This document shows, piece by piece, positions 15,182 through 62,693 of a DNA stretch of 64,000 bases (the stretch's first letter is position 1; each line of letters begins with the position of its first letter). Origin of the DNA: Candidatus Omnitrophota bacterium (lineage in GTDB: Bacteria; Omnitrophota; Gorgyraeia; Zapsychrales; Fredricksoniimonadaceae); the NCBI GenBank assembly GCA_015233335.1, contig JADFXX010000001.1:134302-198301 (forward strand), in the 5' to 3' direction. The translations under genes and the position numbers were made by a program. The notes below the pieces were generated by a model. That model saw nothing but the letters and a program-made list of their open reading frames with translations, did not search any database and was not told the DNA's origin.

Positions 15182-15589
15182 CTACTTTACCCCATGTTCC
15201 AGGAAACATCCTGTGTACTTTTTATCCATCCCCCTGATATGTTCCTTCACCCAACTCCAGAGGAATTCTAATAAGTCCACAGTCACTTTGGCGTCCCCCT
15301 TGTCATATTTCTCGATAAACTCTGCAACCTTGATCTTAAAGTATTCATGCTCCTTGCGATGCTCTTCAAAACCCGGGAAGTTAAAGCCTTCCATATATTT
15401 CTCTTCTGTATTGAAATGATAAACAGTGTAATTAACTAATTCTCTTAAAATCTTTCCTATGCCATCCTCTTCAACAGGCCCCATGGTGGCAGACACAAGT
15501 ACATTTAAGAGACTTATAAGCTTTTTGTGTTGTTCATCGATCTCCTTGATCCCAACACTATAAGATTGGCTCCAACCCACAGCTTCCAT
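15182..15589 (-). CDS. Bacteriohemerythrin (hemerythrin-like metal-binding protein)
   Basis: 135 aa. IDEQHKKLI, HFNTEE, EHRKEH and WVKEHIRGMDKKY match the His/Glu/Asp diiron ligand pattern of bacteriohemerythrins. Confidence 0.85.
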   Translation of the reverse strand: MEAVGWSQSYSVGIKEIDEQHKKLISLLNVLVSATMGPVEEDGIGKILRELVNYTVYHFNTEEKYMEGFNFPGFEEHRKEHEYFKIKVAEFIEKYDKGDAKVTVDLLEFLWSWVKEHIRGMDKKYTGCFLEHGVK

Positions 15590-15608
15590 AAATACCTCCT
15601 GGTTTATG

Positions 15609-16271
15609 CTACTCCAGATCGATCATTTGAGTCTTCCCCACATAATCCGTACGCTTTAGCTGCTCTAAAGCCTGGATTTTTTTAAGAATGGCCATGACCT
15701 TGCCCAACTCATTCTTGACCTTCAACAATGACGCATGACGCTTATCCGTTTCCGGGATTTGAATCAAGAGCCCCTCAAGATAGGCGACCGCGGCCATCAA
15801 CGGCTGGTTCATGTTATGGTTATATGTCACCACCATGTTCTTAACTGTTTCAAGATTGGAGACTTGAAGTTGTTCTTCTTCAGCCCTTTTAATGCGCAGG
15901 TGAGCCTTGACCCGGGTCTTGACCTCTTCGGGTTTAATGGGCTTCACAATATAATCAGCCGCGCCTAAGGCAAAACATTTAGCCATATCTTCCGTGTGAT
16001 CCATGGCAGTAATAAACAGGATCGGGATAGACTTATATTTTTTATCGGCCTTCAGCCTTCGACAAACCTCAAAGCCATCAATCTGGGGCATGATAACATC
16101 AAGCAATATAATATCCGGGGCCCCGCGCTCAATAGATTCAAGCGCAGTAACACCGGAATCAGCTTCTGAAATACTATACCCCTCATCTGCCGCAATCAAA
16201 ACTGCCTTTAGGACCTCGCGGTTGGTCTTTTTGTCATCCACAATTAATATTTTTGAATTGAATTGATCCAT
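15609..16271 (-). CDS. Response regulator: receiver domain plus DHp-like C-terminal helix (no ATPase domain)
   Basis: REC motifs (ILIVDD, PDIILLDVIMP, ADYIVKP). The C-terminus TYNHNMNQPLMAAVAYLEGL resembles a HisKA H-box. I prefer ATG 16271 (GGGAGAAG upstream) to the GTG at 16289. Confidence 0.7.
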   Translation of the reverse strand: MDQFNSKILIVDDKKTNREVLKAVLIAADEGYSISEADSGVTALESIERGAPDIILLDVIMPQIDGFEVCRRLKADKKYKSIPILFITAMDHTEDMAKCFALGAADYIVKPIKPEEVKTRVKAHLRIKRAEEEQLQVSNLETVKNMVVTYNHNMNQPLMAAVAYLEGLLIQIPETDKRHASLLKVKNELGKVMAILKKIQALEQLKRTDYVGKTQMIDLE

Positions 16272-16273
16272 AA

Positions 16274-16813
16274 TTACTTCTTCTCCCACTTTTTGACAAT
16301 AGCGCTGATCTTTTCCTGCACCTTGGATTTGATCTCAATATCGCTCAGGATAGAATTAAGCAGTTCCTCATGTTCTTCAGCCATGCGCAGGATATCCATC
16401 TGCAGTTCCTTGTTTTGCTTTTCTAGGTTGAAACGTTCAATCGCATGTTTCAGGGGCAGCAGCACCTTGTCTTTATCCTCGATGGGTTTAAGGATATAAT
16501 CAAAGGCCCCTTCCCGTAAGGCGTCCTGACATGTTTCCATGGTTCCGAATCCCGTCAGGAAGATCAAAGGGATACGGCTTTCCTTGCTGTTAAGGTACCT
16601 GATGAGTTCAATCCCGCTTTTCCCGGGCATTTTAAGATCACAGATAATGGCTTCAATTTCTTTCTGTCTCCCGATGACCTTGATGGCATTATCAACACCA
16701 TCTGCCGTGTACGCCTCAAATCCCAGCGCCTCCAGAAGCTCCTTGAGAGACTCCCTGATGGCCTCTTCGTCGTCCACCAGCAACACACATCCTAGTTTTA
16801 TATTTTTAGCCAT
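16274..16813 (-). CDS. Response regulator, receiver domain with short coiled C-terminal tail
   Basis: VLLVDDEE, ICDLKMPGKSG and FDYILKP are receiver motifs. GGAGG RBS upstream of the ATG. Confidence 0.8.
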   Translation of the reverse strand: MAKNIKLGCVLLVDDEEAIRESLKELLEALGFEAYTADGVDNAIKVIGRQKEIEAIICDLKMPGKSGIELIRYLNSKESRIPLIFLTGFGTMETCQDALREGAFDYILKPIEDKDKVLLPLKHAIERFNLEKQNKELQMDILRMAEEHEELLNSILSDIEIKSKVQEKISAIVKKWEKK

Positions 16814-16830
16814 GGTTTCCTCCGGTAATT

Positions 16831-18003
16831 TTACAAAATCCCCAGCTCCTCTATAAGCGCTTTATGAAAGGCCGCATCGTTGTTCAAGTCTTTATCACGG
16901 TCCAATGCAAGCGCAAAATAAAAAAACTTCCTCTCATTTTTTAAAGACACAAACCCGATCGTTCCCTTATGGTTCCTTATGATGGTGGATGATACCGAAA
17001 GCCCGAGGCCAGTGCCCTTACCCGGCGCCTTGGTCGTAAAGAAAGGATCAAATAGGTTCTCCTCTGATCCGCTTTTGACCGCAATGCCATTATCAATAAT
17101 GCCGGCTAGGATAGCCGGAAAATCCTTCATTTTCCGAGCTAATACCCGTATCTGGCCGCCCTCCTGCTGATTAAACTTCTCATCAACCGCATCACGGGCA
17201 TTGACCAAAAAATTCACCACTACATCCTGGATCTGATACCGGTCTATGTAAAGCGCAGGAAGATTTTCTTCCAACTCCAAAATAACATTAATGTTATGGT
17301 CCTTAAACTGCTGTGTCAGAAGGAAGATCCCGTCACTAATAGGACGTTTGACATCCCCCTCGGCAAATCCGCCAATCCGTTGTCCGGAATACTCATGCAT
17401 CCGTTTAACGATGGTGCCCAGCCTGACAAACTGGTCCTTGATCTTGATCATCTTGTTCTTTAATATCAAATTTTGTGTAAACTCATCCTGCAGCAAAAGA
17501 CCCTCAATGTGGGATGAAATGGCCATCAAAGGCTGATTCATCTCATGGGCAACACCGGCGCTCAATTCCCCCATCGCGGTCAATTTTGCCGCCCTTAAAA
17601 GCTGCACCTCTTGGGTCTTTAACTGGCGGTATATTTTCTGGTTTTCCAAAGCTCTGCTGATATTCAGCAAAAGCGCATCAAAATTAACAGGTTTGATCAA
17701 ATAATCAGAGGCTCCTTTTTTCAAAGCGGAAATGGCACTTTTGATGTCCCCGTATCCGGTCAGGAGAATAACCTGGGTCTCAGGGCTCATATTTTTAATT
17801 TTTTCCAGCAATTCGAGGCCATCCATACCACCCGGCATACTAATATCGGAAATGATCACATCCGGTGTCTGCAGGTCAAAAATCTCCAAACCTTGTTCTG
17901 CGCTCTTAGCGACAAAGACCTCAAAATTTTTGGCCTCCAGAAGTGTTTGGATCTCAACACGCTGTATTTCTTGATCATCAACAACTAATATTTTTATTTT
18001 CAC
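16831..18003 (-). CDS. Hybrid sensor kinase: N-terminal receiver + HisKA + HATPase_c
   Basis: REC (ILVVDDQE, VIISDISMPG, SDYLIKP), H-box GVAHEMNQPL, N-box NFLVNARDA and G-box GKGTGLGLSV. No obvious sensory or TM domain. Confidence 0.85.
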   Translation of the reverse strand: MKIKILVVDDQEIQRVEIQTLLEAKNFEVFVAKSAEQGLEIFDLQTPDVIISDISMPGGMDGLELLEKIKNMSPETQVILLTGYGDIKSAISALKKGASDYLIKPVNFDALLLNISRALENQKIYRQLKTQEVQLLRAAKLTAMGELSAGVAHEMNQPLMAISSHIEGLLLQDEFTQNLILKNKMIKIKDQFVRLGTIVKRMHEYSGQRIGGFAEGDVKRPISDGIFLLTQQFKDHNINVILELEENLPALYIDRYQIQDVVVNFLVNARDAVDEKFNQQEGGQIRVLARKMKDFPAILAGIIDNGIAVKSGSEENLFDPFFTTKAPGKGTGLGLSVSSTIIRNHKGTIGFVSLKNERKFFYFALALDRDKDLNNDAAFHKALIEELGIL

Positions 18004-18020
18004 AAACAGTCCTTGGTTGT

Positions 18021-19514
18021 TCAGGATTTATCCGCGAATTCAACCTTTAACTTTTCATAAGCGGTTTTAAGCCCTGTTAACGCCTCTTTCATCTGATCAA
18101 TGTTCGCCTGTTGTCTGGCCCAATTGTTGATATCGGTTGCCGGTTCGGAAATCACAGTAAGCCTTAAATTAGCAAAGACTCCCTTGATTTGGTGAGAAGC
18201 CTGATCAATTGAGGTAAAATCATTACCTGCGATCGCCTTTTCTAAATTAGCGATATCCGCTTCTGCTTCCTTAATCGCTGAGCTGGCTATCCTTAAATAG
18301 ATCAGCACCGGAAGCTGTAAAGCTTTAGAATTTTGCTGGATCATTTCATCAAAAGAATTACCAGTTTTTTCTTGGCCCATGGACACCCCTTCTCTAACAT
18401 CTTCTTTTGAAGGTGGAGGATTAATCCCCCCCCCCGTTAAATTAGACGGATTTTTTTCAAGTTCAAAAATCTTGATCTGTAGATCCTTGATCTGGTTCTC
18501 ATACTTCTGGATCAACTGGTCCATGTGGATGGATTTACGGAATTCCTCAAACTCCTTGCCTTGGGCAAACTGCGCGATCGCCTCAACCGCCCCTTTAGTT
18601 TTTTCGTCCAGAAGCTCCAGCTTCATCTTGCCCTCCTGCAAACGCATTTTGATCGCATGCAGAGCTTTCTTTTCTTCATCCATCAGTTTTTCAATATGAT
18701 TCATTTCAACTTCTGAAACTTTAAGATGCTTCATACGCTCACCCTCGGCCGTCAAACGCTCAATCTCATCGGATAGACGCTTAATCTCATCTTCTTTACC
18801 GGCAAGTTCTTTTGAAACAGCTGATAAATTTTTGTTTTCTTGCTCCATGGTCACTAGCTGGGCCTTCAGGCTTGCGATCTCCTCTTTGCTCGCCGGGTCT
18901 TCTTTCGGGATCTGACTGATACGCGCAATCTCACTATTCAAACGCTCGATCTCAGATTTGCTTTCCTGCTCCAAGGTCGCCAGCCGGGCCTTCAGGCTTG
19001 CGATCTCCTCTTTGCTCGCCGGGTCTTCTTTCGGCAGCTGACTCAAGTGCTCGACCTCACCTTTAAGCCTCAACACCTCGGCAGTAAGCCCTCTGATTTC
19101 ACTTTCCTTAAGCGCAATTTCTTGGGCCGTTTGTGCCGAATTCTTGTGATCTTCCTCCATCACTGCCAGCTGAGATTTAAGCTTGGCGATCTCCTGGTCC
19201 TTTGTGGCAAACTCGCTTTCCTTTTCCTGAAGTTTTCTTTTAAGCCCCTCTGCCTCACTCGCCCGTGACTGAAGATCATTGTCTTTCCTGATGATCTCCT
19301 CTTTGGCCTGACTAAAATCAGACTGTAACTTGTCCGAGTCTGCTTTCATCCGCTCAAGCGACTTTTTGATCTCTGCCGGATTGCCATCCACCATTCCAAG
19401 CTGTAATTTCAATCTGCTGATCTCAATATTTGCCTCCGAATCTTGACGAAGAAGAAGAAAGGCCACCACAACAGCTGTCAGGACACACGCGCCTAAAAAA
19501 ATAATAATGATCAT
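18021..19514 (-). CDS. Membrane-anchored coiled-coil protein with C-terminal HPt (histidine phosphotransfer) domain
   Basis: 497 aa. One N-terminal TM helix, ~350 aa of heptad-rich E/K/L sequence with an internal 42-aa duplication, and a C-terminus containing the HPt signature SHQIKGVFANL. ATGA overlap with the upstream gene. Confidence 0.65.
   Translation of the reverse strand: MIIIIFLGACVLTAVVVAFLLLRQDSEANIEISRLKLQLGMVDGNPAEIKKSLERMKADSDKLQSDFSQAKEEIIRKDNDLQSRASEAEGLKRKLQEKESEFATKDQEIAKLKSQLAVMEEDHKNSAQTAQEIALKESEIRGLTAEVLRLKGEVEHLSQLPKEDPASKEEIASLKARLATLEQESKSEIERLNSEIARISQIPKEDPASKEEIASLKAQLVTMEQENKNLSAVSKELAGKEDEIKRLSDEIERLTAEGERMKHLKVSEVEMNHIEKLMDEEKKALHAIKMRLQEGKMKLELLDEKTKGAVEAIAQFAQGKEFEEFRKSIHMDQLIQKYENQIKDLQIKIFELEKNPSNLTGGGINPPPSKEDVREGVSMGQEKTGNSFDEMIQQNSKALQLPVLIYLRIASSAIKEAEADIANLEKAIAGNDFTSIDQASHQIKGVFANLRLTVISEPATDINNWARQQANIDQMKEALTGLKTAYEKLKVEFADKS
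18426..18435. repeat. Homopolymer C10 (G10 on coding strand) inside the coiled-coil/HPt CDS
   Basis: Counted directly. It encodes the GGG of ...NLTGGGINPPPS..., the linker between the coiled-coil and HPt parts. Confidence 0.9.
18860..19034. repeat. Tandem 126-bp (42-codon) duplication with 49-nt identical cores
   Basis: gggccttcaggcttgcgatctcctctttgctcgccgggtcttctttcgg occurs at 18860..18908 and 18986..19034. It encodes (Q)(L/I)PKEDPASKEEIASLKA(R/Q)L twice. Confidence 0.9.
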
Positions 19515-20098
19515 GCTTTATCTCCACCGGGCTTAGATTTTAACCCTTTAAGCCTGCGCAACTTTTCTAAGGTCGAATCAATGCCCTTAGACTCCTTCTC
19601 TTCGACTCCGATATCTCCCAGATTACTTTGCACATCTTCATGAACATAAAGTTTGGAAAGGTCTACTGACTCAAAACCCGCAGCTTCCTGGATCTCACGA
19701 AGCTTGTACTCACGGGCAGGTCCGCTCAAAGTTTTAAGGTCCTTGAGCATTCCCGCGATTTTATCAGAAAGTTTGTCTGAAACAGCATCCAGCGAGCCTT
19801 GCAGGATCGCCGCCATGTGCGTCTTGAATTCCTCGAGTGTCATCCCGGCGGCCGGCGCGGCAGATACCGGCGTCCCGGGTGCCGGCATAACCAACGGCGG
19901 GACAACCGGCGCAACCGGCGCCGATGTTTGGGGTTCTTTTAATCTGTTGGTGATACGAACCGTAACAACATCCAAAGACCCCAAGAATTGTCCCATCAGC
20001 AATTCAGTCTCCATAAGTTCCTGATCAAGGGCATACCGGGACTGCCGAAGCTGATCGATCCTTTGAACCAATGTGATATTCTTATCTTCTAAACTCAT
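19511..20098 (-). CDS. Hypothetical protein with central Pro/Ala/Val-rich segment
   Basis: 195 aa with ATGA overlaps at both ends (translational coupling with the actin-like gene upstream and the HPt gene downstream). No recognisable domain. Confidence 0.4.
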   Translation of the reverse strand: MSLEDKNITLVQRIDQLRQSRYALDQELMETELLMGQFLGSLDVVTVRITNRLKEPQTSAPVAPVVPPLVMPAPGTPVSAAPAAGMTLEEFKTHMAAILQGSLDAVSDKLSDKIAGMLKDLKTLSGPAREYKLREIQEAAGFESVDLSKLYVHEDVQSNLGDIGVEEKESKGIDSTLEKLRRLKGLKSKPGGDKA

Positions 20099-52969: not shown

Positions 52970-54844
52970 TTAAGAAACCTTAATAACGACTAAGGTAATG
53001 TCATCCTGCTGCTTGCGCTTGCCTAAAAACTTCATCACGTCTTTAATGATCTCGTCGCGCAAATCCAACGCCGGCAAATCTCTATGCATCTGAACAAACG
53101 CCTTCAGGCGCTCAATGCCGTACATTTCATTTTTTATGTTAGCGGCCTCGGTTATGCCGTCCGTATAATAAATAAAAACATCTCCGGAGTCAAATTTTAT
53201 CTGCCGCCCGGAATAGGCGCTCTTCATCATGCCCAAAGGAAAGCCTTCGTCCACATCTAGAACAATGGCTTTCCCCTCACGCCCCAAATACAACACCGGA
53301 AGATGACCGCCATTAGCATAAGACATAACCCGCCGTTTCAAATCGAATATAGAATAATATATCGTAACAAAACGGTTCGATGCGGTCTCCCGCACGATCT
53401 TTTCATTGAGCTCATACAAGGTCTGGCTTGGGGTGTTCTGCGGCTTGGCAAAAAACTTGAAAGAGCTGACCGCCATGGTCATAAAAAGGCTTGCTGATAT
53501 CCCTTTGCCCGCGACATCTCCGATCATGACCCCAAGCTGATCTTGATCAAACTTGAGTACATCATAAAGATCCCCGCCCACCTCGCGGGCAGTCAACATG
53601 GTGGCCGCCATATCAAACCCTTTGACTTCAGGTAAACTTGCGGGTATAAAACTTTCTTGGATCTGCTGGGCGATCGAAAATTCGTTTTCCAAAATGATCC
53701 GTTCCTTAAAATGAAGAATGGATTTGTACAGAGTGCATAAAAGATACAAAAGCCCCATGATCACGAGCGGATAAAAAATATCGATCCATATTCCAAACTT
53801 ATTAAAAAGCATCACGCTAATAACCGCAAAAATAGCCGCAATTTCAAAGAGAAATCCAAAGGCCTGCAAAGGCGCCGCTTTTAGTGAAGCCCCAATGATA
53901 AGCGCCCCTAAAATAATAAAAATGCAGAGATTTATTCTTCTTGACGCCCTGGAAATAAATTTGTGATGCAGGATAGAATTAATGACATCTGCATGGATAC
54001 CGATCGAGGGATACAAGCCTTCCAAAGGGCTGGGATGCAGATCTGTGGTTCCGTCAGCCGTATAACCGACCAGGCAGATCTTTGAGCGAAAAACATTAAG
54101 ATCCACAACAGGCCTTGTCCCGACGCTTTGAGCCTCCCATGAGCCCAGCACATCCCCGAAAGAATAATGCTGATACGCACTGGTCCATGGACCGGCAAAG
54201 TTAACGATCACATCCGAGTTTTCATCCAAAGGAATCCCCTCGCGGTCTAGATCTTTTTGCAAATAATCACCTGCGACCAATAATGCCATGGCAGGATAGT
54301 GCCGGCCCCCGTACTGCACATGTAACGGAACCCTTCGGAATTTTCCATCGGCATCGGGAATGACATTGATATATCCTGTGCCTTTGGCGATACCTGCTAA
54401 TTCCGGAAGATCTTGGGTGGAATACCGCAGTGCCCGCGTGACACCTTGGGACTTTCGCTCATCTAATTCAAAGACATAAGGCAAATAAACATTCCCTGCC
54501 GCACGCATGGCATCCTGCAAATCTTTGTCCCCGTGGGCGGGCTCACTAAAGAAAATATCAAAAACAACAGCCTTAGCGCCGGCATGACTCAAAGCATCAA
54601 TAAGCTTGGCATGATAGCCGCGGTGAAAAGGGAAGGTCCCGATTTTTTGGATGGTGGCATTATCGATCTCAATGATCGCAACTTTGTCAGTCGTGGATAT
54701 AGGTCCGCGCAGACGGAATCTTAGATCTAAAGCATCCAGTTCATTTTTTTCAAAAACTTGATACCAAGAGCCGTACAATAAAAGAACGGCAGTCACAAGT
54801 AAAGCTGAAACAGCGGCTATTTTCTTAAGGATTATCTTGGACAT
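52970..54844 (-). CDS. CHASE2 sensor - transmembrane - PP2C/SpoIIE serine phosphatase
   Basis: 624 aa. The N-terminal periplasmic CHASE2 pattern (RFRLRGP...VAIIEID...[15 protein letters not shown]...VVFDIFF), three TM helices, and a SpoIIE domain ([31 protein letters not shown]). Confidence 0.8.
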
Positions 54845-56433: not shown

Positions 56434-57498
56434 TTAAGCCAATATCTGCCAGAAATGCTTAGGCATACGTTTGGCCATCTTAAGCGCGCCATTGGCTCCG
56501 CCAAAAACCGGCTCTTCCACACGTCTGACCCTTCCTCCGCCTAATTCTCTCATGCCTTCTTCGACTAATTTGGGCAAGCCGATCATCTGGCTTCCGCCGC
56601 CGGCCAAGATAACGTTATGACGCAGGTCTTCCTGAAACTCAGGATCATAAGAAGCGATCAACTCCGCGATGGAATCAATAATCGGAGGAACAATGCTCCG
56701 GCAGGCCGCACGCAGTTCATTGGTAATATCGACCTCAACAGGACGGCCCTTGACCGGAAATTTGGCCGTGATCTTGTCCGCGCTGTCTGCAACAAAACCA
56801 TGCTTTTCTTTAAGGGATTTGATCATGTTGATAGTAAACTGGACATCGGGGTGTTTGGCCTTGATCCCTTTAGCAAACTGTTCGTCCACATAATCTCCGG
56901 CTTTATCAAACGTGATCTGGTCCTCATCCTCAGGCAGGGTGCCGTGCAGACGGCAAAGGTCCACGGTACCGGCCCCTATGTCAATAATAAGGGCACGGTC
57001 TAAAATCCCCAAACCATACGCCACAGAAAAAGGTTCCGAGCAGATCATGACCGCATTAAGAATTCCACGGGATGCGTCCACCAGGATTTTCTTGCTGGCA
57101 ATGCTGGCACGGGCCGGTGCGCCGATGACCCCATACACATGCTGGCCGGATTTGGGACGGGCCAAATGAAGCAGGTGCTTGACCAATAACTGGGCCGCCT
57201 TTAAATTGATATTGTCCCCGGTCTTTGTTTCCTGAATAACACCGCGGGCCAAGGGCCTGACAAGCTCCACGGAAAGCCTGTGCTTGAGCGCCGCATCACC
57301 GAACAAAGGCTCATTGCCCAACAACTCTTCGGCAATATTATCTTTAGGAAAACCCACAAATGAGGGAACAACTTCGCGCACCCCGTTACTAGCCGCTATG
57401 ACTGAAGAAGATGTCCCTAAATCTATGCCTACAAAAAGGGCTTCGGTCTCGGAGGAAAAAGAGTCTTGTTTCTTGATGATTTCTTTCTTCTTGGACAT
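56434..57498 (-). CDS. mamK: MamK-like actin-family filament protein
   Basis: 354 aa from ATG 57498 (AGGAG RBS). The longer track ORF runs into a repeat element. GIDLGTSSSVIA, MICSEPFSVAYGLG, IIDIGAGTVDLCRL and LAGGGSQMIGL are collinear with MamK as I remember it. Confidence 0.85.
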   Translation of the reverse strand: MSKKKEIIKKQDSFSSETEALFVGIDLGTSSSVIAASNGVREVVPSFVGFPKDNIAEELLGNEPLFGDAALKHRLSVELVRPLARGVIQETKTGDNINLKAAQLLVKHLLHLARPKSGQHVYGVIGAPARASIASKKILVDASRGILNAVMICSEPFSVAYGLGILDRALIIDIGAGTVDLCRLHGTLPEDEDQITFDKAGDYVDEQFAKGIKAKHPDVQFTINMIKSLKEKHGFVADSADKITAKFPVKGRPVEVDITNELRAACRSIVPPIIDSIAELIASYDPEFQEDLRHNVILAGGGSQMIGLPKLVEEGMRELGGGRVRRVEEPVFGGANGALKMAKRMPKHFWQILA

Positions 57499-57520
57499 TA
57501 AAAATCTCCTTACGAATTGT

Positions 57521-57614
57521 GTGTCATTGCGAACCCCAACGGGGTGAAGCAATCTTTACAAAATTGGCTGTTCTATCAAAGATTGCTTCGTCGCTTCGCT
57601 CCTCGCAATAACAC
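57521..57614. repeat. Palindromic intergenic repeat, type A, full copy
   Basis: gtgtcattgcgaaccccaacggggtgaagcaatct ... agattgcttcgtcgcttcgctcctcgcaataacac, immediately upstream of mamK-like. Confidence 0.9.
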
Positions 57615-58252: not shown

Positions 58253-59206
58253 CTAGCTGGCGCCGACAAACCAGCCGACAAAAAAAACAAGAAGGCCTCC
58301 GACCACAACCTGAAAGGCCGCGGCAAGGAAAGGCGTATCCATATATTTCCATCGGATGCATGAAATAGCGCCCAACTCTATGATAACAACTGCAATCGCG
58401 ATCGTTAACGCTGCATGAAAATCACGAAGAAAAAAAGGTACAGTATGGCCTAAACCGCCAAGCGTCGTCATGATCCCGCAAATGACGCCGCGCAGCCACG
58501 GAGAACCGCGTCCGCTGAGCTTCCCGTCGTCAGAAAGCGCCTCGGCAAACCCCATGCTGATCCCTGCACCGACGGAAGCCGCAAGTCCCACTTTAAGAGT
58601 TTCTAAAGTATTGCTCGTCGCAAATGCCGCGGCGAAAATAGGCGCCAAGGTTGAGACCGAACCGTCCATCAATCCTGCCAAGCCCGGCTGAATAAAGCGC
58701 AGGACAAAAAGGCGGCGTTGAGCGTTGCTTTCTTCCATCAGGCCGCCGTCTGCCATCTTCTCCTGAGTTATTTGGGAAGCGCTGCTCGCGTGTTGTTGTT
58801 CTTCCTGCGCCAAGTCTCCCAAAAGTTTGCGCATCGAGGCATCATTGGTCCGTTGGGCAGCGACTTCATAAAACCGGCGCGCTTCCAACTCCATGGACGC
58901 GGCTTCCTCCCGCGCTTTATCGGGACGCACCGTATGCATAAACCAAAAAGGGCGCCGCGTGACAAAGCCCTTCACATCCTGCCGGCGAATAAGAGGAATA
59001 TGTTCGCCAAAACGTTTTTGATAAAGACTGATCAGGCGGCTGCGGTGCCCGGACTCTTCCTTGGACATCCGCACAAAAAGATCGGCTGTCACCGGAAAAT
59101 CCTTGCGCAGGGCTTCGGCAAAGTCCCGATAAATATGCCCGTCTTCTTCTTCGGCGCTGATGGCAAGGGCAAGCACTTGCGCTTCAGTTAAATCATGAAA
59201 ATACAT
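58253..59206 (-). CDS. mbfA: Ferritin-like (erythrin) domain fused to VIT1/CCC1 iron transporter (MbfA-like)
   Basis: 317 aa. An N-terminal diiron four-helix pattern (EEEDGH...EESGH...ELEARRFY...EEQQH) and a C-terminal VIT1 membrane domain ([20 protein letters not shown]...[13 protein letters not shown]). Confidence 0.85.
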
Positions 59207-60596: not shown

Positions 60597-62693
60597 TTAA
60601 GCTCCTAATCCGAGGTATGATCCTCCTTGATAGATGATAAATGCCACGATCCAGGCAAGAGTTAAACTGTAACTGACAGCGAACAAGGTCCATTTGAGAG
60701 ACCCTAGTTCCCGGTACATGGCTCCCAATGCCCCCAGGCACGGAATATAGATCAAAGTAAAAAACATAAAAGCTAACGCACTTAACGGCTTCATGTTCTT
60801 TTTAACAGCTTCTTTTAAGCCGGCGCTTTTTTCATTCGCATCAGCACCGGTTTGATAGAGCACGCCAAAAGTGGAGACCACGATTTCCTTGGCCGCAACG
60901 CCGGTGATAAGGGCGATGCCGCCTCGCCAGTCAAACCCTAAAGGCTTTATCGCAGGCTCGATAAATTTACCCATCTGACCGGCATAACTTTTAGATAATC
61001 TCTCAGTGTTATCCTGTATAGCGACATTGCGCGGGAACGCGGAAATAAACCATATGACGATCGAAGCCGCCAGGATGATCCCTCCCACCTTCTGCAAAAA
61101 GATCGATCCTTTTTCCCACATATGGATGATCACACTTTTGAGCATAGGCAAACGGTACGGGGGAAGTTCCATGACAAAAGGCGCTGCCCCGCCTTTAAAC
61201 AATGTCTTCCTAAAAATCTGGCCGATCAAAATTGCCAAGACGATACCTGTCAGATAAACGGCAAAAATAACATTGCCTGCGTATTTTCCGAAAAAGACCC
61301 CCGCTAAAAGCACATACACAGGAAGACGGGCCGAGCAGCTGACCAAGGGATTAATCAAAATCGTAATCATCCGGTCTGTTTTGTTCTCCAAGGTACGGGT
61401 CGCCATAATTCCGGGGACGTTACAGCCAAAGGCCATGATCATGGGAATAAACGATTTTCCGTGGAGCCCCAAGGTATGCATGATGCGGTCCATGATAAAC
61501 GCCGCACGGGCCAGATATCCCGTGTCTTCAAAAAAAGAAATAAAAAGAAAAAGAAGCATGATATTGGGTAAAAATGCCAATACTCCGCCCACCCCGCCGA
61601 TCATACCATCAACCACCAGCTCCCTTAATAGACCCGCTGGCATGATCCCATTAACAAAATGACTGATGATCCCCACGAAAGAATTGATCCAATTCTGGGG
61701 ATACGCTCCCAAGGTATAGGTCGCCTGAAACATAATCCAGAGCAAGCCCAACAGGATAGGGATTCCCAAAATACGATTGGTCATAACACGATCGATTTTA
61801 TCCGATATGCTGAGTTGTCCCGTATTCAAATGACTGTAGGCCTCAAGCAAAAGCCCCTTAATAAACCCGTAACGTCGGTCAGCGATAATAATTTCACAAT
61901 CATCGCTAAAATGCCCCTCGATATGTTTCCGGCTTGAATCCGCTTGTTTCAAAATATTTTCTTTATTGGCCGAAGTGGCGCTGATCTCTTTAACGATCTC
62001 ATTGTCCCCCTCGAGGAGTTTGACCGAAAGCCAGCGTGTCGATAAGCGCCCATCCGCCAGTGAGCTGTCTTTTCTGATCTCGGCCTGTATCTTTTTGATT
62101 TCTTCTTCCACCTCATTACCGTAACTGATATGCAGATGACGCACGATCGGTTCCTTATTCTCAAAAATATTAACAACTTCCTGCAATAATTCTTTCATCC
62201 CGTGCCCACGGGAACCGACGGTCGGTACGACAGGCATGCCTAAAAGCTCTCCCAGTTTTTTACGGTCAATTTTAATGCCTTTATGCTCGGCCTCATCATT
62301 CATATTCAGGGCAATGACCGCACGGGCACCCAATTCAATGAGCTGGGTCGTCAGATAAAGATTGCGGTCTAAGTTAGTCGAATCAACGATATTAATGACT
62401 ACATCAGGTTCCCGCAGGATAAAGTCCCTAGCTACGATCTCTTCAATGGAATATGCCGTCAGGCTGTATGTTCCGGGAAGATCCACCACCTTGATCTGAT
62501 ATCCCTCGAAATTGACGATCCCTTCTTTTGATTCAACAGTGACCCCTGCATAATTTCCCACATGCTGACGACTTCCGGTTAAAGCGTTAAAAATACTGGT
62601 CTTTCCCGCATTGGGATTTCCGCAAAGACCGACGATGATCGTTTTCTTTTCCTGTGAAACGTTTTTATCCACAAGGGGCTGGCCTTGACTCAT
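60597..62693 (-). CDS. feoB: Ferrous iron transporter FeoB (copy 2)
   Basis: 698 aa. G-domain GLCGNPNAGKTSIFNALTG...DLPG...NMND and a C-terminal gate/permease region. ATGA overlap with feoA. Confidence 0.95.
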   Translation of the reverse strand: MSQGQPLVDKNVSQEKKTIIVGLCGNPNAGKTSIFNALTGSRQHVGNYAGVTVESKEGIVNFEGYQIKVVDLPGTYSLTAYSIEEIVARDFILREPDVVINIVDSTNLDRNLYLTTQLIELGARAVIALNMNDEAEHKGIKIDRKKLGELLGMPVVPTVGSRGHGMKELLQEVVNIFENKEPIVRHLHISYGNEVEEEIKKIQAEIRKDSSLADGRLSTRWLSVKLLEGDNEIVKEISATSANKENILKQADSSRKHIEGHFSDDCEIIIADRRYGFIKGLLLEAYSHLNTGQLSISDKIDRVMTNRILGIPILLGLLWIMFQATYTLGAYPQNWINSFVGIISHFVNGIMPAGLLRELVVDGMIGGVGGVLAFLPNIMLLFLFISFFEDTGYLARAAFIMDRIMHTLGLHGKSFIPMIMAFGCNVPGIMATRTLENKTDRMITILINPLVSCSARLPVYVLLAGVFFGKYAGNVIFAVYLTGIVLAILIGQIFRKTLFKGGAAPFVMELPPYRLPMLKSVIIHMWEKGSIFLQKVGGIILAASIVIWFISAFPRNVAIQDNTERLSKSYAGQMGKFIEPAIKPLGFDWRGGIALITGVAAKEIVVSTFGVLYQTGADANEKSAGLKEAVKKNMKPLSALAFMFFTLIYIPCLGALGAMYRELGSLKWTLFAVSYSLTLAWIVAFIIYQGGSYLGLGA

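Follow-up and report, generated by a model that had tools for sequence, protein, structure and literature searches.

In magnetosome gene clusters (MGCs) of Candidatus Omnitrophota, a histidine kinase and a response regulator with swappable sensors appear to form the conserved terminal part of a cytoskeletal operon. This is the main result of our analysis of a 64,000-nucleotide stretch, hereafter the window (positions 134,302 to 198,301 of contig JADFXX010000001.1, assembly GCA_015233335.1), and it outweighs the HPt fusion which is also found there. Five genes are tightly packed on the minus strand of this metagenome-assembled genome (MAG), from position 19514 to position 15182 of the window, behind two actin-like genes. 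They encode, in this order, a membrane-anchored coiled-coil protein with a C-terminal HPt domain, a sensor-less REC-HisKA-HATPase kinase, a single-domain response regulator, a receiver protein with an ATPase-less DHp hairpin (REC-DHp) and a bacteriohemerythrin.

A preliminary description of this DNA had read the five open reading frames (ORFs) as a phosphorelay coupled to the cytoskeleton. All five are present on the minus strand at the coordinates it gave. The ATGA overlaps it mentioned can be read directly from the sequence, at 20098/20095 and 19514/19511; they link the second actin-like gene, a gene of 195 codons and the HPt gene, and the other junctions measure 2–19 nucleotides. Overall, its observation is confirmed and its interpretation is partly supported. 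The module consists of known parts in a new arrangement and a new context. We regard it as fairly probable that these genes represent a local form of a two-component module which closes the actin-like/coiled-coil operon of Omnitrophota MGCs and which would work through the relay outlined below.

Conservation of the module across related loci

The window proteins were mapped by BLASTP and Pfam onto 27 related loci (L001–L028 except L024, some of them mutual duplicates) and one Planctomycetota locus (L024). Twenty-two distinct loci, nearly all labelled Omnitrophota, contain enough downstream sequence to be informative. The conserved order is a ParA-like gene, a gene for a 271-residue coiled-coil protein, two actin-like genes, the 195-codon gene (p195) and the gene for the transmembrane (TM) coiled-coil protein. 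Sensory or two-component genes stand directly after this last gene in 20 of the 22 informative loci (the window, L001, L002/L010, L003, L005, L006, L008, L011, L013, L014, L016, L019–L023 and L025–L028). The genes beyond the module vary. Since the outer flanks differ between loci, the module is linked to the cytoskeletal block rather than to what lies further out. The preliminary description had allowed for a coincidental adjacency, with the genes unlinked in relatives; the relatives show the opposite.

The pair of kinase and 179-residue regulator is found in the window, L001, L002/L010, L003, L011, L013, L014, L020, L025, L026 and L028, and the L021 contig ends within the kinase gene. Judged by this distribution, the conserved core is the DHp-CA part of the kinase together with the regulator, and different genomes use different, interchangeable sensory front ends. 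Three front ends can be distinguished. The first consists of HPt and REC-DHp (the window, L001, L008, L020 and L027). The second comprises one or two dCache/HAMP/PAS histidine kinases (L002, L003, L005, L011, L013, L014 and L021). The third combines CBS proteins, REC-DHp and a CBS-kinase (L025 and L028).

Within the five HPt loci, the HPt lies directly behind the coiled-coil gene in four, and in L027 it is located upstream of the actin-like genes. All five contain the REC-DHp gene, which follows immediately 3′ of the HPt in L008 (with a 4-nucleotide overlap), L020 and L027. Three of the five also have a neighbouring hybrid kinase: with two C-terminal receivers in L001 (CHASE) and L008 (dCache-HAMP-PAS), and with at least one in L027 (PAS), where the gene is cut at the contig start. 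With a hidden Markov model built from four HPt orthologs, no overlooked HPt was detected in the remaining loci.

The kinase and the 179-residue regulator

The kinase (390 residues; 16831..18003, minus strand) comprises a receiver (REC, residues 5–113, acceptor Asp53), a DHp/HisKA domain (residues 144–206) with His153 in the motif AHEMNQPL, and a CA domain (residues 254–367). The Pfam scores are 27.4 bits against a cut-off of 26.9 for HisKA and 46.1 against 26.4 for HATPase_c. N-terminal of the DHp domain Pfam gave only the receiver, with neither a sensor nor a TM domain, and the sensor-less architecture proposed earlier is thereby upheld. Kinase orthologs with 53–72% identity occur in the loci of at least eight further species, and across all loci with the pair, the homologous DHp-CA cores show identities of 43–72%.

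The regulator (179 residues; 16274..16813, minus strand) has REC as its only Pfam domain and Asp59 as the acceptor. A helical C-terminal tail of about 60 residues (16456-16277, minus strand) belongs to no Pfam family. In 12 orthologs, which share 59–82% identity, the tail carries the motif PL.HA..MAEEH..D..K..VQ..I...W with two conserved histidines, one in PL.HA and the other in MAEEH. A search among 1.84 billion proteins matched only 11 cluster representatives, and the tail appears to be lineage-specific and almost unique to the Omnitrophota module. The regulator is presumed to be the conserved output of the module.

All three receivers match PF00072 (1e-29 in the kinase, 2.5e-25 in the regulator and 2e-30 in REC-DHp). 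Their acceptors Asp53, Asp59 and Asp58 are found in a D-x-x-M-P context, and the sequences also show the DD, T and K positions. As Pfam recognises no DNA-binding domain in the REC proteins, their output is probably a protein-protein interaction.

The coiled-coil-HPt protein and the origin of the fusion

The first protein of the module (497 residues; 18021..19514, minus strand) is composed of five segments. A hydrophobic TM helix (residues 1–22, 19514-19449) is followed by a variable coiled coil (residues 23–235), a conserved family core defined by the family alignment (residues 236–356, 18809-18447), a low-complexity linker of G, P and S (residues 357–385) and the HPt domain (residues 386–497, 18359-18024), all on the minus strand. 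The rod is rich in E, K, L and Q, and its matches to SMC and coiled-coil profiles are weak only. The whole protein has a 100% identical counterpart at NCBI, from a Candidatus Omnitrophica MAG with a contig of 212 kb.

The HPt domain is identified by several approaches. Pfam Hpt (PF01627) matches residues 414–490 with 37.1 bits against a cut-off of 24.6 (E 3.8e-9). The predicted phospho-acceptor His441 (18194-18192) lies in SHQIKG, an HxxKG motif, and aligns onto the phospho-accepting histidine of the RcsD (YojN) HPt (1sr2). This histidine is invariant in the four aligned HPt orthologs (SHQIKG, SHILKG, SHQFKG and AHEIKG). The AlphaFold2 model of residues 386–497 is a five-helix bundle (pLDDT 93.9, pTM 0.84). 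Its top Foldseek matches in the PDB are nearly all HPt proteins, with TM-scores of 0.59–0.79 and a probability of 1.00, at E-values of only about 1e-2; they include HptB, a Shewanella HPt, fungal and plant HPts, Ypd1, ArcB and RcsD. The C-terminal HPt of the preliminary description therefore stands, both in its fold and in its conserved histidine.

The coiled-coil proteins form a small family. Its members combine a TM helix and a coiled coil, which differs in length, with a C-terminal core of about 120 residues that is strongly conserved. The core family was detected only in Omnitrophota-labelled MAGs, one Planctomycetia-labelled MAG and one unclassified MAG. Ortholog proteins range from 188 to 542 residues, and the rod length is highly variable. 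In the window protein, an exact 16-residue repeat, PKEDPASKEEIASLKA, occurs in the coiled coil at residues 161 and 203, 42 residues apart, which suggests a recent internal duplication. Tandem Repeats Finder detected nothing in the coiled-coil gene, and this duplicate is the sole repeat.

The fusion of HPt and coiled coil was seen only in the window and in its closest relative, L001. The two loci share 95% identity in the first actin-like protein and 49% in the coiled-coil-HPt protein. Both genomes have a continuous ORF with a linker rich in G, P, S and N, of unequal length. In L008, L020 and L027 the HPt is a separate gene of 104–120 codons. The L008 coiled-coil ORF ends in ...LELEKKP-TAA and the in-frame ATG of the HPt follows 12 nucleotides later, preceded by a predicted GGGGG ribosome-binding site; a single in-frame stop codon sets the two genes apart. 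Since the HPt is separate in relatives, and since one in-frame stop lies between the genes in L008, the coiled-coil-HPt protein is a recent fusion of neighbouring genes and not an ancient architecture. Loss of the stop codon is most simply the route. On this comparison, the HPt is ancestrally a separate small gene directly behind the coiled-coil gene. The earlier claim that the HPt is built into a membrane-anchored coiled coil thus holds in the window and not as a general architecture, the fusion being recent and confined to two genomes. As a Rosetta-stone event, the fusion argues for an HPt which works at the coiled-coil protein.

The same observations bear on a trivial explanation, in which an ordinary two-component cluster borders the MGC by chance and the apparent HPt fusion comes from read-through in annotation or assembly and has no function. 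The module is indeed located at the very edge of the cluster, its 3′ neighbours are housekeeping genes (H+-pyrophosphatase (H+-PPase), glycogen phosphorylase and PFOR), and the fusion is limited to two MAGs. However, the synteny in 20 of 22 informative loci despite unlike outer flanks largely refutes this explanation. The ATGA overlaps at the upstream junctions, the HPt position behind the coiled-coil gene in four of the five HPt loci and the presence of the fusion in two independently assembled genomes, with so divergent a protein and unequal linkers, also speak against it. We consider it extremely unlikely.

The REC-DHp protein

REC-DHp (15609..16271, minus strand) has 220 residues if translated from the ATG at 16271, or 226 residues from the GTG at 16289. 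A receiver with Asp58 is followed by a DHp hairpin (residues 114–204) with His152 in the motif NHNMNQPL, and no ATPase domain is present. By BLASTP the tail of this protein aligns with the DHp domain of the neighbouring kinase (E=2e-8), histidine on histidine (NHNMNQPL on AHEMNQPL), and 12 of the 20 positions after the histidine are identical. The protein belongs to a family of REC-HisKA proteins of about 215–230 residues, whose source-named members are all Omnitrophica. Many members carry a precomputed Pfam HisKA match; the window protein itself scores none. Among 44 members, His152 and Pro157 are invariant; directly after the histidine, 31 members have Asn and 12 have Glu.

The AlphaFold2 model (pLDDT 87) contains the receiver, a helix of 58 residues which runs on from it (114–171), a turn and a second helix (177–204). 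Together with the alignment to the kinase and the family-wide histidine, this hairpin upholds the DHp-like helix without ATPase which had been noticed before. Foldseek searches with the model are dominated by receiver-domain matches and uninformative on the DHp part.

Related loci give an indication of what this receiver does. In L020 (7513-9039), a protein of 508 residues is a complete REC-DHp fused to the DHp-CA part of the kinase, replacing the kinase's own receiver. In L025 and L028, REC-DHp precedes a REC-less CBS kinase. This fusion, and this gene order before receiver-less kinases, suggest that the receiver of REC-DHp controls the kinase core. The L020 fusion yields a kinase in which two DHp-like hairpins stand in tandem (REC-DHp'-DHp-CA). 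We considered whether REC-DHp is exclusive to HPt loci and rejected this, as L025 and L028 have REC-DHp with CBS-type kinases and no HPt.

A proposed path of phosphate

The following steps describe how the module might operate. First, a hybrid sensor kinase, adjacent in three relatives and located outside the window here, would transfer phosphate from its histidine to its own aspartate and then to His441 of the HPt, at the membrane or the cytoskeleton. Then, the HPt would pass phosphate to a receiver which controls the kinase core; candidates are the receiver of REC-DHp, the neighbour of the HPt in three relatives, and/or the N-terminal receiver of the kinase. Subsequently, His153 of the kinase would phosphorylate Asp59 of the regulator. 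REC-DHp probably acts on the partner of the kinase, in the role of phosphotransferase, phosphatase or heterodimeric modulator, since it shares the H-box and the helix-1 surface with the kinase and has no ATPase. Finally, the regulator tail probably binds co-encoded cytoskeletal proteins and would thereby tune the organisation of the magnetosome chain, with the hemerythrin as a putative accessory O2/redox binder and not the core sensor. Domain identities, conserved His and Asp residues, synteny, co-occurrence, the origin of the fusion and the lack of recognised DNA-binding outputs are established by the analysis; which way phosphate flows, a modulating function of REC-DHp and an effect of the tail on cytoskeletal proteins are inferred.

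In Desulfovibrio magneticus RS-1, the coiled-coil proteins Mad20, Mad23, Mad25 and Mad26 have been shown experimentally to organise the chain with MamK and Mad28 (PMC12748827). This makes chain organisation a plausible target of the module.

Several points weigh against the proposed reading. Two of the informative loci, L015 and L018, possess the coiled-coil gene without two-component genes. No hybrid kinase with a C-terminal receiver was found within the 64-kb window, and the place which this gene occupies in L001 is taken by the H+-PPase. Of the phosphorelay in the preliminary description, the parts (HPt, kinase and receivers) are present, while the usual donor of an HPt is absent from the window. 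In addition, three histidine and three aspartate sites permit many other wirings, and all genomes are MAGs. A promoter and terminator scan gave hits at the level of shuffled background only and is therefore uninformative on the operon limits.

Further opposing evidence concerns the target. The module might regulate a general actin-like/coiled-coil cytoskeleton, involved in shape, division or polarity, which lies beside the MGC or was recruited by it and is not specific to magnetosomes. Both actin-like proteins belong to the Volactin family, and homologs with about 60% identity are abundant in Planctomycetota. One example is L024, in a Planctomycetota genome of 7.87 Mb, where no magnetosome genes are nearby. 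Since such homologs occur without a nearby MGC, the family is not MGC-specific. In L025 (1-16542), a block of HEAT, ParA, coiled-coil, actin-like, actin-like, p195, coiled-coil and two-component genes stands directly after PBP2 and RodA, and neither feoB nor mam genes occur in the 10 kb upstream; the mad-type cytoskeletal block may thus exist outside magnetosome clusters. In L005/L012 (2955-12503), the second actin-like gene is reduced to its last ~57 codons, behind an unrelated HisKA and REC pair, and the ORFs for p195, coiled-coil protein, PAS protein, dCache-kinase and 179-residue regulator are intact. The actin block is deleted here and the signalling part is kept.

The Volactin spread, the L025 context and L005/L012 mean that the target could be a general cytoskeleton. 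On the other hand, the block is contiguous with FeoB, FecR and DtxR genes in the window and in L026, and with mam genes in the window; in other long loci, the same HEAT-repeat genes come before it. Loci that bear HQL locus tags or JADF/JADG accessions belong to a set of magnetically enriched genomes of magnetotactic bacteria (PMC7602337). Moreover, the single Planctomycetota locus inspected, L024, has no coiled-coil and two-component partners. We judge a target outside magnetosome organisation to be unlikely and retain the module of an MGC operon as our preferred interpretation.

A more speculative extension of this interpretation deserves mention. The magnetoskeleton might gate the phosphorelay spatially, with the HPt at the tip of a membrane-anchored scaffold coiled coil and transfer to the kinase and regulator set by the assembly, position or mechanical load of the chain. 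Such an arrangement is very improbable in our view. If true, it would amount to a cytoskeleton-coupled His-Asp pathway, possibly sensing torque or position, with the regulator tail feeding back on the filaments.

The hemerythrin as a possible input

The last gene of the string encodes a single-domain bacteriohemerythrin (135 residues; 15182..15589, minus strand). Its identity, as named in the preliminary description, is canonical: it matches Pfam Hemerythrin (3.7e-19) and the NCBIfam bacteriohemerythrin model NF033749 (TIGR02481; 139.1 bits against a cut-off of 84), and all seven iron ligands (H-H-E-H-H-H-D), the full diiron set, align with those of 4xpx.

It had been proposed that this protein is the sensor of a phosphorelay responsive to O2 or iron. 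The sensor-less REC-kinase would then feed phosphate to the coiled-coil HPt, which would couple redox state to chain organisation or to magneto-aerotaxis. The intact iron ligands are in agreement with this idea. The gene ends the string at a spacing of 19 nucleotides and recurs in L001 and L027, in the latter directly before a sensor-less HisKA-HATPase gene. Furthermore, chemoreceptors with hemerythrin domains are known O2 sensors (PMC12442639).

However, hemerythrin was found in three loci only (the window, L001 and L027), and it is poorly conserved: the window and L001 proteins share 38% identity, compared with 70–95% for the neighbouring genes. The protein contains no transmitter or other signalling domain, and most relatives use dCache, PAS, CHASE or CBS inputs. 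No chemotaxis genes (CheA, CheW, MCP) were found in the window. Where a kinase carries an N-terminal receiver, this receiver usually serves as an input and not as the phosphodonor of an HPt. The case for hemerythrin as the O2/iron input is therefore weak, and we hold such a relay to be decidedly unlikely. The protein would rather be an accessory O2/redox-binding protein than a core sensor.

The gene cluster around the module

The window contains a genuine MGC, whose genes are all on the minus strand. The stretch 5′ of the module encodes magnetochrome/PDZ proteins, a trypsin-PDZ protease, two MamB/M-type CDF transporters, TPR, LemA and TauE proteins, a PDZ-CitMHS transporter and FeoB. After FeoB follow FecR-like and DtxR/FeoA proteins and three HEAT-repeat proteins.

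The conserved cytoskeletal block begins with a ParA/MinD-like ATPase assigned by Pfam (24106-23339) and the 271-residue coiled-coil protein (23370-22555), whose orthologs across loci show 72–96% and 45–87% identity, respectively. Next are the actin-like genes 1 (329 residues; 22542-21553) and 2 (475 residues; 21522-20095), which are syntenic in related loci and constitute the block to which the module is appended. Pfam assigns both to Volactin (PF25216, E 3.8e-78 and 2.1e-82) and not to MreB/MamK. An identification as MamK was rejected, as their scores with the NCBIfam model NF040964, 35.1 and 26.3 bits, do not reach its cut-off of 400. The protein p195 (195 residues; 20098-19511), whose gene has an ATGA overlap with both neighbours, belongs to no Pfam or NCBIfam family. 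Its orthologs occur in nearly every related locus which reaches upstream of the coiled-coil gene; where present, p195 precedes this gene, and it is absent in L015. All of these genes are encoded on the minus strand.

A separate MreB/MamK-like actin gene (56434-57552, minus strand; weak MreB_Mbl match, 1.5e-18) is located about 10 kb upstream of the mam genes, with genes for an Mla transporter, ApbE and a CHASE2-SpoIIE phosphatase in between. The latter, a PP2C-type sensor phosphatase (52970-54844, minus strand) just 5′ of the cluster, is a further signalling protein near the MGC. The upstream flank also carries a rubrerythrin-VIT1 fusion (58253-59206, minus strand) and a second, more canonical FeoB (60597-62693, minus strand).

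Relation to known systems

Relays with a stand-alone HPt offer the closest comparison for the HPt domain. Examples are the hybrid kinases and HptB of P. aeruginosa, Sln1-Ypd1-Ssk1 and RcsC-RcsD-RcsB. The HPt four-helix bundle and the HxxKG motif are shared; the best structural matches are HptB (7c1i) and the Shewanella protein (3myf), and the sequence match is the RcsD HPt (1sr2). As in these His-Asp-His-Asp relays, the relatives of the window pair the HPt with hybrid kinases which bear C-terminal receivers. In contrast, the window HPt ends a TM-anchored coiled coil of about 350 residues without a kinase domain, the window encodes no hybrid kinase, and the terminal regulators have no recognised DNA-binding or enzymatic output.

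The kinase resembles LvrB of Leptospira, a sensor-less REC-HisKA-HATPase kinase which is phosphorylated by the sensor hybrid kinase LvrA. It aligns end to end with the LvrB model NF047466 (residues 3–365 against 4–374 of 377, E 1.3e-44), which is its best NCBIfam match and has the same architecture. Relatives of the window likewise place sensor kinases directly upstream of the sensor-less kinase. Since its 152.9 bits are far below the cut-off of 500, the window kinase is not an LvrB ortholog, and it differs from LvrB in genomic context and in output.

Spo0B and ChpT are DHp-type phosphotransferases without kinase activity. REC-DHp shares with them the DHp hairpin, the invariant histidine and the lack of a functional ATP-binding domain, and by analogy it could relay phosphate along an Asp-His-Asp path. 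Unlike these proteins, it is fused to its own receiver and does not have even a pseudo-CA domain, and its H-box is a close paralog of that of the neighbouring kinase.

With the Mad system of RS-1, the window shares HEAT/coiled-coil proteins and two actin-like proteins encoded together in an MGC of the deep-branching type. The text of the RS-1 study, by contrast, does not contain the terms 'kinase', 'two-component' or 'Hpt' (PMC12748827). A physical link between signalling and the magnetosome cytoskeleton has been proposed, and contested, for the MCP Amb0994 and MamK in Magnetospirillum magneticum (PMC12442639). Amb0994-MamK would likewise join a signalling protein to the magnetosome cytoskeleton. 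However, Amb0994 is a chemotaxis-type receptor encoded elsewhere, whereas the link in the window is made within a His-Asp system, by covalent fusion and by association at the operon level. For plants, transmembrane HPt proteins have been predicted (PMC12785465, PMC13206810), which are tethered to the membrane by TM helices, as is the window protein; these eukaryotic proteins differ from it in having neither a coiled-coil rod nor a cytoskeletal operon context.

In the open-access literature searched, we found no description of kinases, HPt proteins, response regulators or hemerythrin in Omnitrophota MGCs. The main texts of the two studies which are the source of most MAGs (PMC7602337, PMC5955933) contain no kinase, HPt, response-regulator or hemerythrin terms.

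Significance

The fusion of an HPt to a membrane-anchored coiled coil suggests a direct control of the magnetosome-organising machinery by phospho-signalling. This bears on when and where magnetotactic bacteria build their chains, and on whether the chain communicates with signalling, for which the Amb0994-MamK idea is contested. The module also offers small soluble parts: the HPt, three receiver domains, two DHp domains and the novel 60-residue regulator tail. Beyond the window, the mad-type block of Omnitrophota serves as a natural example of modular rewiring, in which a fixed core of kinase and regulator is combined with exchangeable sensory front ends.

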